Assembly (NCBI RefSeq): GCF_055900595.2
Contig: NZ_CM148325.1
Strand: one strand, 5' to 3'
Length of the DNA: 64,000 nucleotides
Shown: positions 15,576 to 38,050 of the stretch, piece after piece
Numbering within the stretch: position 1 is the first letter of the stretch
How the letters are laid out: every line of letters begins with the position of its first letter
Made by a program: the position numbers and the translations under genes
The notes under the pieces: generated by a model
Told to the model about the DNA's origin: nothing
Seen by the model: the letters and a program-made list of their open reading frames with translations, nothing else
Database searches by the model: none

Positions 15576-17027
15576 TCAGCTAAACAACATCGCGATTTTT
15601 CCGAGAGCATAACCTATCACCAGCACCGTTAAGCTGATTTTGATAATGCTGGTAATGCTCTGTGGTTTTTCATCCTCATCATTTTTTTCTTCGTGGTTTT
15701 CAGGTGTTGGCTCATCGACATCTTCATCCTCCGGCTCGAGTTTCACTTTCGTCAACAGCATCCGCGTGATAATGGCCTCTAATGGATGAGCATCTCCACC
15801 TTCCAGCCTTGTATTAAGACGGGCCAGCATCTCTTGTTTCGGGAACGCTTCCAGCACAACCTGTTCCGCTACCCGATACAAATCCAGTAACGGTGAATCT
15901 TGTTCTGTCTCGCTACCGACTCTCGATTTCCACCATGCCCATGTTTTGCGCTTGAAGAATAACGACTCAATAAACGATTGACCTAACGGCGATAATTTTC
16001 CGCTATGTAAAATTTCCGCCCATAACAGCCTCGTCCGGGCGCTCTCACCAGGAACATATTTCAGCGGCTTACCTTGCGCATCAACCATGCTTCGCGCTTC
16101 GATAACCATCACTAACAGCGCGAAGTAATCCGGGCAATGTTGCGCACTCCACTGCAGTAATAAATTATCGGCTTGTGTAGATGGATAACTTTCCCAGTAA
16201 CCACAGAGATCGGCAAGCATGCTTTCACCCTCGCCGCAGTATAACCGTTGCGCACACTGGTAATATCGGGCATCTTCACTTTCTGGTTCTTCCGTTTGCC
16301 ACTGTTGCGCTACAGAAATGAGTTCCGCCATACCTGTTTGCACCGAGCTATACCAGCGCAACAATTTGCGATGCAACTTCGCATCATCGGGAATGAACCA
16401 CGGACCTTCCATCGCCAAAAACGCAGTGACATAGTCAGGGTGATAACGGCAGCAGCGTTCCAATGCGAAGTAATACTCAACAGTCTGGTTCTGCAACGCG
16501 ACGGGATATTCCAGAAGGCTTAGAAAATCGAAACAATCCCCGGCCTGAATGGCCTCAAGAAAAGCCTCCCGTTCTTCCTCGTCCATGCCTTCACTTTCAT
16601 TAAATGAATGCCAGTTCAAACGCTCTGCCAGCAAAGAAGCACAATTTAATGAAAGATATCGCGCTTCTGTAGCGATTGCACACAGCGGCCAGCGTAATTG
16701 ATCGACATCCTCCATGTTCCAGGTATTTAATTGCTGAATAAATTTCTGCCAGGCGGAGGGCTGAAAACGATCGCTTTCCGAAGCCAGTAAGGTTCTGAAC
16801 GCTTTCAGTGCTTCGTGCTCTTCTGCAAGATTTTTCTCGTCATCAGCATTTTTTTCGTCCGGATTGACAGCCAGTCGCAGCGCCTCTTCATAGGCCTGGC
16901 GTAATGCTTTAAACCCCTGCGGATCGGTTTCGGGATGACACAACGGTAAGCGAGCAAGATAAGCCTGGCGGATACTGTCTATTTGCGTCGTGCTTTCAAT
17001 TTCGAGGATTTGCCAACATGTTTTCAT
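15576..17027 (-). CDS. djlC: J-domain-like co-chaperone of HscC with C-terminal membrane anchor
   Basis: 483 aa; N-terminus [11 protein letters not shown]...LCHPETDP (J-domain-like, HPE tripeptide); C-terminal hydrophobic tail [26 protein letters not shown]; ATG overlaps the ybeU stop (ATGA). Confidence 0.9.
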
Positions 17028-32048: not shown

Positions 32049-33137
32049 ATGCGTAAGCAGTGGCTCGGGATCTGCATCGCGGCAGGAATGCTCGCGGCAT
32101 GTACAAGCGATGATGGTCAGCAACAGACGGTAAGTGTACCGCAGCCTGCGGTATGTAACGGCCCCATAGTTGAAATTAGCGGGGCGGACCCGCGTTTCGA
32201 ACCACTGAACGCGACGGCAAATCAGGATTACCAGCGCGACGGTAAAAGCTACAAAATCGTGCAGGATCCGTCTCGATTTAGCCAGGCGGGACTGGCGGCA
32301 ATCTATGATGCCGAACCCGGCAGTAACCTGACGGCCTCTGGCGAAGCATTCGATCCGACACAGCTGACAGCGGCCCATCCAACGCTTCCGATCCCCAGCT
32401 ACGCCAGAATCACTAACCTGGCTAACGGGCGAATGATCGTGGTGCGCATTAATGATCGCGGTCCTTACGGCAACGACCGCGTTATTTCGCTTTCTCGCGC
32501 GGCAGCTGACCGTCTTAACACGTCAAACAACACCAAAGTTCGTATCGATCCGATTATTGTCGCCCAGGATGGTTCGCTTTCTGGTCCTGGTATGGCCTGT
32601 ACCACAGTTGCCAAACAGACTTACGCCCTGCCTGCACCTCCCGATTTAAGCGGTGGCGCGGGAACAAGTTCAGTGTCTGGCCCGCAGGGTGACATTCTTC
32701 CGGTCAGTAATTCGACGCTAAAAAGCGAAGATCCGACCGGCGCGCCGGTAACCAGCAGCGGTTTCCTCGGTGCACCAACGACGTTAGCGCCTGGTGTGCT
32801 GGAAGGCAGCGAACCAACACCTGCGCCACAGCCCGTTGTTACAGCTCCCTCGACAACGCCTGCAACCTCGCCTGCAATGGTGACACCGCAAGCCGCCTCG
32901 CAAAGCACTAGCGGCAACTTTATGGTGCAAGTTGGGGCCGTAAGCGATCAGGCGCGTGCGCAACAGTACCAACAGCAACTGGGACAGAAGTTCGGCGTCC
33001 CCGGTCGCGTAACTCAAAATGGCGCGGTCTGGCGGATCCAGCTTGGCCCATTCGCCAGCAAAGCCGAAGCCAGTACCTTGCAGCAACGTTTGCAAACCGA
33101 AGCCCAATTACAGTCATTTATTACCACCGCGCAGTAG
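32049..33137 (+). CDS. rlpA: Septal ring lytic transglycosylase RlpA (lipoprotein, C-terminal SPOR domain)
   Basis: 362 aa; lipobox MLAAC; DPBB domain; Pro/Ala/Thr-rich linker; C-terminal SPOR domain (FMVQVGAVSDQARAQQ...). Confidence 0.95.
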   Translation: MRKQWLGICIAAGMLAACTSDDGQQQTVSVPQPAVCNGPIVEISGADPRFEPLNATANQDYQRDGKSYKIVQDPSRFSQAGLAAIYDAEPGSNLTASGEAFDPTQLTAAHPTLPIPSYARITNLANGRMIVVRINDRGPYGNDRVISLSRAAADRLNTSNNTKVRIDPIIVAQDGSLSGPGMACTTVAKQTYALPAPPDLSGGAGTSSVSGPQGDILPVSNSTLKSEDPTGAPVTSSGFLGAPTTLAPGVLEGSEPTPAPQPVVTAPSTTPATSPAMVTPQAASQSTSGNFMVQVGAVSDQARAQQYQQQLGQKFGVPGRVTQNGAVWRIQLGPFASKAEASTLQQRLQTEAQLQSFITTAQ

Positions 33138-33211
33138 CGTAAAGCAGGCATCTGATGTGTCAATTTCTGTAAATGACGTTAACAAAGTCACGCGGAAAGT
33201 CAGATGCCTGC

Positions 33212-33247
33212 CGGTAGTGCATTTGCTATAGTAGGGCACTTTTTTTA
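33212..33247 (+). terminator. Candidate terminator after rlpA
   Basis: Short stem agtgc / gcact followed by ttttttt (33241..33247); lies just 3' of a 12-bp inverted repeat (33144..33155 / 33200..33211). Confidence 0.35.
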
Positions 33248-33276
33248 ATTCCATCACGGATGTCGTAGTTCAGACC

Positions 33277-34488
33277 ATGAATACCATTTTTTCCGCTCGT
33301 ATCATGAAGCGCCTGGCGCTCACCACGGCTCTTTGCACAGCCTTTATCTCTGCTGCACATGCCGATGACCTGAATATCAAAACTATGATCCCGGGTGTAC
33401 CGCAGATCGATGCGGAGTCCTACATCCTGATTGACTATAACTCGGGCAAAGTGCTCGCCGAACAGAACGCAGATGTCCGCCGCGATCCTGCCAGCCTGAC
33501 CAAAATGATGACCAGTTACGTTATCGGCCAGGCAATGAAAGCCGGTAAATTTAAAGAAACTGATTTAGTCACCATCGGCAACGACGCATGGGCCACCGGT
33601 AACCCGGTATTTAAAGGTTCTTCGCTGATGTTCCTCAAACCGGGCATGCAGGTTCCGGTTTCTCAGCTGATCCGCGGTATTAACCTGCAATCGGGTAACG
33701 ATGCTTGCGTCGCCATGGCCGATTTTGCCGCTGGTAGCCAGGACGCTTTTGTTGGCTTGATGAACAGCTACGTTAACGCACTGGGCCTGAAAAACACTCA
33801 CTTCCAGACCGTGCACGGTCTCGACGCTGACGGTCAGTACAGCTCCGCGCGAGATATGGCGCTGATCGGCCAGGCGTTGATCCGTGACGTACCGAATGAA
33901 TACTCGATCTATAAAGAAAAAGAATTTACGTTTAACGGTATTCGCCAGCTGAACCGTAACGGCCTGTTATGGGATAACAGCCTGAATGTCGACGGCATCA
34001 AAACCGGACACACTGACAAAGCAGGTTACAACCTTGTTGCTTCTGCGACTGAAGGCCAGATGCGCTTGATCTCTGCGGTGATGGGCGGACGTACTTTTAA
34101 AGGCCGTGAAGCCGAAAGTAAAAAACTGCTAACCTGGGGCTTCCGTTTCTTCGAAACCGTTAACCCACTGAAAGTAGGTAAAGAGTTCGCCTCTGAACCG
34201 GTTTGGTTTGGTGATTCTGATCGCGCTTCGTTAGGTGTTGATAAAGACGTGTACCTGACCATTCCGCGTGGCCGCATGAAAGATCTGAAAGCCAGCTATG
34301 TGCTGAACAGCAGTGAATTGCATGCGCCGCTGCAAAAGAATCAGGTCGTCGGTACTATCAACTTCCAGCTTGATGGCAAAACGATTGAACAACGCCCGCT
34401 GGTTGTGCTGCAAGAAATCCCGGAAGGCAACTTCTTCGGCAAAATCATTGATTACATTAAGTTAATGTTCCATCACTGGTTTGGTTAA
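33277..34488 (+). CDS. dacA: D-alanyl-D-alanine carboxypeptidase PBP5
   Basis: 403 aa; signal peptide; active-site SLTK and SGN motifs. Confidence 0.95.
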
Positions 34489-38020: not shown

Positions 38021-38050
38021 AAAAAACCCGCTTTTTGAAGCGGGTTTTTT
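38021..38050. terminator. Bidirectional intrinsic terminator between convergent lipA and tatE
   Basis: aaaaaa-cccgctttttgaagcggg-tttttt: perfect hairpin flanked by A- and T-runs. Confidence 0.8.

Follow-up and report, generated by a model that had tools for sequence, protein, structure and literature searches.

Steady-state 3' ends of Rho-dependent or processed E. coli mRNAs, lying just downstream of stable, U-poor stem-loops that protect against PNPase and RNase II, have been described by Dar and Sorek (2018, NAR, PMC6061677). The element analyzed here, a hairpin between rlpA and dacA that we call H1, is similar to this class in being a stable stem-loop followed closely by a precise 3' end and in having a U-poor tail, both of which were found when tested, and in lying in an intergenic 3' UTR without being a REP. 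Unlike the typical terminator-like hairpins of the class, H1 is much longer (68 nt) and has a structured 44-nt interior, and it is followed not by an untranslated rut region but by an active promoter and a gene that is translated. With the downstream promoter overlap as an addition, H1 fits the class, and by likeness its 3' end might depend on Rho and on exonuclease trimming.

Three other kinds of element are also comparable. Like canonical intrinsic terminators, H1 is a GC-containing hairpin that stands where an operon ends, and an RNA 3' end follows its stem by about 10 nt, but it has no U tract (the 3' end is at A33221/U33222), its 44-nt interior contains nested helices, and it was missed by a consensus scan. 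In the overlapping terminator-promoter arrangements of compact bacterial intergenic regions, which are a general arrangement and not a defined family, one short spacer serves both as the end of the upstream transcript and as the start of the next, as is the case here, although the overlap at this locus is tighter than usual (one arm is the -35 element and the loop is the upstream promoter region) and the two arms evolve asymmetrically. REP/BIME elements, which stall 3' exonucleases and stabilise the upstream mRNA, are intergenic palindromes as well, but they occur in many copies with a consensus whereas H1 is single-copy per genome: a median of one place was found per E. coli genome, and a covariance model detects only H1 in the window, that is, the whole 64-kb stretch of DNA analyzed. 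H1 is an ordinary kind of element, and it has not previously been singled out or named at the rlpA-dacA locus.

The window is from Escherichia coli: with 601 nt around the site as query, matches at 95-99.7% identity are obtained in 5424 of 5426 complete genomes, and the matching, near-identical E. coli genomes are annotated rlpA then dacA in RefSeq, with the gene order mrdB-rlpA-dacA-ybeD-lipB in a K-12-like record. The gene immediately before rlpA is mrdB, within which Kim et al. 2012 (PMC3415461) mapped a separate start for rlpA. The spacer between rlpA and dacA is 139 nt long (33138-33276) and carries no annotated feature in RefSeq. An identity of at least 99% over this spacer is kept in 5272 of the 5424 E. 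coli genomes, whereas for the 601-nt stretch with the coding flanks the same holds in only 543 of the 5424; by these identities, the spacer is more strongly constrained within E. coli than the flanking codons. The features of the locus are as follows.

32049 to 33137, plus strand: rlpA coding sequence, the upstream gene whose transcript carries the hairpin (stop codon TAG at 33135-33137; open reading frame list and RefSeq)
33138, minus strand: antisense RNA 3' end (…GCCUGCUUUACG; Term-seq 664101(+), all three growth conditions, Adams et al. 2021)
33144 to 33211, plus strand: whole hairpin H1, 68 nt (minimum free energy -31.4 kcal/mol, z -7.7)
33144 to 33155, plus strand: 5' arm GCAGGCATCTGA, which varies more than the 3' arm (column entropies of 0.0-1.9 and 0.0-1.3 bits, respectively)
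33159 to 33173, plus strand: CpxR-like direct repeat GTCAAtttctGTAAA, a candidate DNA-level site in the loop (-79 to -65 from the dacA start)
33200 to 33211, plus strand: 3' arm TCAGATGCCTGC, with GATGCC nearly invariant, holding the dacA -35 hexamer ATGCCT (33204-33209)
33216 to 33240, plus strand: short hairpin H2 (AGUGC…GCACU plus a weak inner stem; -8.1 kcal/mol, z -2.0)
33221 (OD 0.4) or 33222 (OD 2.0), plus strand: rlpA-sense steady-state RNA 3' end from Term-seq (A33221/U33222)
33224 to 33232, plus strand: dacA extended -10 element, TGcTATAGT (TG 33224-25, TATAGT 33227-32), invariant in 55 species
33238, plus strand: dacA transcription start, an A (start-site table of Kim et al. 2012, 663224(-))
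33240 to 33246, plus strand: T7 run (T6 in K-12), +3 to +9 of the dacA mRNA
33277 to 34488, plus strand: dacA (PBP5) coding sequence, the downstream gene (open reading frame list and RefSeq)

A first-pass annotation, made from the letters of the window only, had pointed out a perfect 12-bp inverted repeat with a 44-nt spacer just after the rlpA stop. Both a repeat finder and direct reading confirmed it: the arms GCAGGCATCTGA (33144-33155) and TCAGATGCCTGC (33200-33211) are each 12 nt long, 100% complementary and 44 nt apart, and the first of them begins 6 nt past the stop codon. The bare repeat is not significant by itself, because 0.34 perfect inverted repeats of at least 12 bp are expected by chance per 64 kb and at least one is present in 30% of shuffles (200 dinucleotide-preserving shuffles of the window, spacer 3-100 nt); the window itself contains three such repeats with a spacer in this range. 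The annotation had also proposed RNA folding, a comparison with related species and 3'-end mapping as checks: a single stable hairpin was obtained (-31.4 kcal/mol, z -7.7), the arms are conserved with compensatory changes across 49 Enterobacteriaceae species, and a published Term-seq end lies 10-11 nt past the stem. It is the folding energy, the conservation with covariation and the mapped RNA 3' end, therefore, that make the element real.

In the predicted fold, the 12 Watson-Crick pairs are extended by U33156·G33199 and followed by a 7-nt asymmetric bulge, an inner helix of 7 pairs (33164-33170 with 33192-33198) and a small, weakly supported apical helix (33174-33177 with 33187-33190). This fold makes up 74% of the ensemble. 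The reverse strand folds to only -23.5 kcal/mol, the sense strand being 8 kcal/mol more stable, and the RNA ending at the mapped 3' end folds to -41.8 kcal/mol (z -5.5). A search against Rfam 15 gave no family match, the two hits obtained being at chance level (E 0.59 and 3.8) and both far below the gathering scores. We also considered an apparent extension of the helix in E. coli through pairing of the rlpA stop region with 33213-33220, so that the base of the helix would coincide with the 3' end; it was rejected as a conserved feature by a tail-swap over the 49 species, where the native ΔΔG was -2.9 kcal/mol and the swapped one -3.0 kcal/mol.

Term-seq of MG1655 by Adams et al. 2021 (eLife, PMC7815308) lists a 3' end at 664018(-) in LB at OD 0.4 (91,306 reads) and at 664017(-) in LB at OD 2.0 (41,794 reads), that is, in two of the three growth conditions, and classes these ends as 'orphan' and as 'upstream ORF, -54, dacA'. 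The coordinates were mapped to the window through the printed flanking sequences, which span 50 nt upstream to 10 nt downstream of an end (checked on the sgrS row), and through the '-54 to dacA' entry. The ends thus fall at 33221 and 33222, 10-11 nt past the H1 stem and inside CGGUAGUGCA, a stretch that is not U-rich: the 10 nt following the stem (33212-33221) contain only 2 U. Because dacA transcription starts further downstream, at 33238, so that the ends lie at -17/-16 of the dacA promoter, they belong to the upstream, rlpA-sense transcript. In this way a published 'orphan' end, listed as a possible event in the dacA 5' UTR, can be assigned as the 3' end of rlpA at a conserved hairpin. The antisense end at 33138 is on the other strand, 6 nt beyond H1, which appears to give rise to 3' ends in both directions. 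In supplementary file 2 of Adams et al. (BCM), the range 6638xx-6641xx has no entry for a Rho-termination region, a signal that the strong transcription from the adjacent dacA promoter would mask. The SMRT-Cappable-seq data contain no entry for rlpA or dacA, and our literature searches found no paper linking rlpA with RNase III cleavage sites and, among the papers listed for ProQ, Hfq and RIL-seq, no mention of rlpA.

For the comparison between species, we fetched 80 orthologous dacA loci from different species; 49 Enterobacteriaceae species were analyzed. The rlpA-dacA spacer is 135-145 nt long in 48 of the 49 and 153 nt in the remaining one. Its 3' half is nearly invariant, GATGCC(T/A)G…TTTGCTATAGTA(A/G)GGCAC-T(n)-AAT…CACGGATGTCGT, and its 5' half is variable; a long hairpin closing on the GATGCC block is found in all 49 species, with energies from -15.7 to -34.9 kcal/mol (mean -25.5). 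The core stem was predicted unaided by RNAalifold from a sequence-only alignment of 84-nt segments anchored on the 3' arm, whereas a plain MAFFT alignment of the whole spacer, with about 20% of the 5' arms misaligned, made RNAalifold miss the long-range stem. When the E. coli structure was applied to the anchored alignment, 75% of cells were paired, compared with 33-44% when the partners were slid (cell counts overstate the number of independent events, since the species share phylogeny), and the covariation score was 0.194, compared with at most 0.114 for slid partners, and none of 500 shuffles reached 0.194. By helix, 83% of cells are paired in the outer, 77% in the inner and 51% in the apical one. 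Double changes are present at 7 of the 12 outer-helix pairs; compensatory changes there include columns 17/71 (UA 21, CG 20), 15/73 (UA 40, CG 4) and 10/78 (AU 15, UA 7, CG 2), and in the inner helix columns 36/64 flip between CG (10) and GC (9). Within the E. coli 12-mer, conservation is weak at the three outermost pairs, leaving a conserved core of 9 bp.

The kind of mismatch tolerated in this core tells which strand is paired. Its cells comprise 363 Watson-Crick pairs, 31 G·U and 7 A·C; transitions should yield the two types of mismatch about equally, so the excess of G·U over A·C indicates that the pairing takes place in the rlpA-sense RNA. Variation is much lower in the 3' arm than in the 5' arm, whose entropy is higher at almost every pair, and some constraint besides pairing must therefore act on the 3' arm. 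The length of the loop ranges from 13 to 56 nt across genera (13, 28 and 37-56 nt; 13-39 nt in Erwinia and its relatives), and Serratia has much longer inserts between the arms.

The constraint on the 3' arm is explained by dacA. The start mapped by Kim et al. 2012 (PLoS Genet, PMC3415461) at 663224(-) has 336 reads, a 38-nt 5' UTR and a printed flank ending …TATAGTAGGGCA, and another study names the promoter elements as -35 ATGCCT and -10 TATAGT and drove GFP from a fragment starting at 33209 (PMC9338883). The layout is that of a sigma-70 promoter, with ATGCCT (33204-09), 17 bp and TATAGT (33227-32) upstream of the mapped start, although the -35 hexamer shares only 3 of 6 bases with TTGACA, and a simple promoter scan misses the dacA promoter. 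Since the 3' arm holds the -35 element, it hardly varies, and pairing is kept up by changes in the 5' arm. The overlap is visible in how the arms evolve: the arm constrained by the promoter stays fixed, and the free arm follows it by way of G·U intermediates. The hairpin loop sits in the upstream region of the same promoter, and the conservation of the 3' arm and of the loop could in part be due to the dacA promoter alone. One short spacer holds two overlapping codes, an RNA stem and a promoter -35 with its upstream region, and engineering of the dacA promoter or deletion of rlpA, as has been done in secretion strains, will alter the hairpin too.

On balance we consider it likely, with some reserve, that H1 is a hairpin without a U tract that fixes the 3' end of the rlpA mRNA, protects it and at the same time overlaps the dacA promoter. 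The arms are the base of a conserved hairpin, about 68 nt long, within the 3' UTR of the rlpA transcript. Most likely this hairpin blocks exonucleases working 3' to 5': transcripts that extend further, whether through read-through towards dacA or after a cut in the AU-rich stretch beyond the hairpin, would be shortened as far as the hairpin, so that the end is defined and stable, and in this sense the hairpin probably protects the rlpA mRNA. The same DNA serves dacA through the -35 element in the 3' arm and the promoter upstream region in the loop. The link from the hairpin to the end at 33221/33222 is positional, and we infer from it that the hairpin causes the end. The distance of 10-11 nt from stem to end is compatible with either trimming or termination. 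We prefer trimming of read-through or endonucleolytically cut transcripts because the tail is poor in U and because there is little room for Rho to act, only about 65 nt of untranslated RNA lying between the hairpin and the dacA start codon.

The first-pass annotation had left three readings side by side, namely a structured 3' UTR or processing site, a protein-binding palindrome, and a terminator ahead of the dacA promoter. The first of these is supported by the data, as the stem covaries as rlpA-sense RNA and a Term-seq end follows 10-11 nt after it. The last was only half right: the hairpin has no U tract, and rather than standing ahead of the promoter it overlaps it, with the -35 element in the 3' arm. 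A genuine, non-canonical terminator or insulator without a U tract, which releases RNA about 10 nt past the stem, perhaps with the help of NusA, NusG or Rho, and shields the dacA promoter from read-through out of rlpA, is unlikely, though the chance is large enough to be taken seriously. It would account for a precise end 10-11 nt past a very stable stem, near the 7-9 nt of intrinsic terminators, for the canonical terminators found at the same place in related families, and for the 3' end of the antisense RNA, in which UUUACG comes next to the stem and the end is reached after 6 nt. However, termination by E. coli RNA polymerase is poor when a U tract is missing, and the 10 nt after the stem (CGGUAGUGCA) have 2 U only; moreover, a terminator scan of the plus strand from 32900 to 33500 found nothing, and an interior of 44 nt is far above the 3-8 nt loops of intrinsic terminators. 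A polymerase roadblock at the dacA promoter was rejected on geometry; by our reckoning collision ends should be found near -75 and not at -17.

The annotation had also noticed the short hairpin and the T7 run that follow, and these do exist as sequence features, as direct reading and folding showed. H2 extends across the -10 element and the start of dacA transcription, and in E. coli it is predicted to be a 10-pair bulged hairpin (-8.1 kcal/mol) with U6-U7 directly after it, so that together with the T run it does look like a weak intrinsic terminator in the fold model. If it were the real terminator (33216-33246), ends would be trimmed back through this weak hairpin to the strong one, and a T run of about T4-T8 is indeed kept in most of the Enterobacteriaceae; it is polymorphic within E. 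coli. We nevertheless find this improbable as the site at which the 3' end is formed. The dacA start lies inside it, the data of Adams et al. contain no curated Term-seq 3' end at the T run, the outer stem AGUGC/GCACU is present in only 5 of 49 species (Escherichia and a few others, mean -5 kcal/mol), and in most species the best local hairpin is not beside the T run. The conserved bases are those of the -10 element, the discriminator and the dacA mRNA start, and their conservation is accounted for by promoter function. At the very start of a transcript, a U run also recalls UTP-sensitive reiterative transcription, as in pyrBI, codBA and upp, or a translational enhancer that binds S1.

Another possibility is that the repeat acts as DNA, either as inverted half-sites for a regulator of dacA or as a cruciform, with the RNA hairpin a by-product. 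In favour of this, the nearly invariant 3' arm extends into the -35 region, the interior contains conserved motifs including the CpxR-like direct repeat, and inverted half-sites could co-vary as well. On the other hand, arm spacings of 13, 28 and 37-56 nt, and longer in Serratia, argue against a site of fixed protein geometry; the nested inner helices covary too; the 5' arm tolerates G·U and not A·C (31 versus 7), which is a property of pairing in one RNA strand; and a 44-nt loop strongly disfavours cruciform extrusion. The protein-binding palindrome of the annotation is not supported, on the same grounds, a loop of 13-56 nt across genera, a 5' arm that drifts against a fixed 3' arm, and the G·U bias, and H1 lacks what defines a dimeric site, two conserved half-sites at a fixed spacing. 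We consider an action as DNA very improbable. Still less credence can be given to a cis-regulatory leader or attenuator of dacA acting on transcripts started upstream, which would be suggested by the entry 'upstream ORF, -54, dacA' that Adams et al. list among the '3' ends upstream of ORFs' and by a conserved structure just upstream of a gene. The only dacA start in the table of Kim et al. (33238, 336 reads) is downstream of both the hairpin and the 3' end, so that H1 is outside the 5' leader of that transcript, no start site lies between rlpA and the hairpin in the data examined, and no Rfam family was matched.

The loop contains a candidate site of its own. GTCAAtttctGTAAA agrees with the CpxR box GTAAA-N5-GTAAA in 9 of 10 bases, and at the aligned position a match of at least 8 of 10 is kept in 37 of the 49 species, four of them perfect, compared with 1.8% at other offsets. 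For CRP, ArcA or PhoB sites in the loop the spacings, as we read them, do not fit; only the CpxR-type repeat does. The published record of the site is a PSSM prediction, one of more than 10,000 (PMC9600279), and in our literature search no experimental test of the box at dacA was found. Going by the motif and its conservation, dacA may be an unrecognised Cpx target, and a CpxR site would explain the conserved sequence of the loop. It is possible, but in our view doubtful, that the spacer is deliberately dual-coded, with the U-less RNA hairpin by itself ending upstream transcripts on both strands and the DNA serving as a dacA regulatory region with the -35 element in the 3' arm and a conserved CpxR-type repeat in the loop. 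If this were true, envelope-stress control of PBP5 and insulation from the mrd operon would be physically coupled and would co-evolve.

Other motifs were seen around the promoter. Two copies of GGATGYC are present, one in the -35 region at 33202-08 (AGATGCC in E. coli), the other in the dacA 5' UTR at 33259-65. This 5' UTR contains the highly conserved block CACGGATGTCGT (33255-33276), with no obvious Shine-Dalgarno sequence 5-10 nt before the ATG; insertion of one raised DacA activity about 2-fold (PMC9338883). In Enterobacter, Leclercia, Kosakonia and others, TATAGC-N4-GCTATA is found just upstream of the -10 position, as a 6-bp hairpin or a palindrome whose 3' half is the -10 element itself; the motif is absent from E. 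coli. In Rahnella, Hafnia and one Enterobacterales isolate, short GC-rich hairpins with U-rich tracts behind them come right after rlpA, for example GGGGCTGCGGCCCCGTTTTTAT. The loci concerned are as follows.

Equivalent of 33215-33230: TATAGC-N4-GCTATA (loci L007, L008, L018-L024, L026, L028, L030, L031, L034, L040 and L053)
About 10-45 nt past the rlpA stop: Rahnella/Hafnia-type hairpins (loci L070, L072, L075, L076 and L078)

The Rahnella/Hafnia-type hairpins, some of them with U tracts, take the place of the long U-less hairpin of the Enterobacteriaceae. The comparison of these sequences suggests that what is required and conserved at the site is the formation of an RNA 3' end.

Elsewhere in the window, a second perfect 12-bp inverted repeat, CTTTCATTAAAT and ATTTAATGAAAG, is found at 16594-16605 and 16644-16655 with a 38-nt spacer. 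At 38021-38050, AAAAAACCCGCTT…AAGCGGGTTTTTT is a symmetric arrangement of A run, hairpin and T run in the form of a bidirectional intrinsic terminator, and this sequence is that of the cspE/crcB 3' end in the table of Adams et al. 2021 (PMC7815308).
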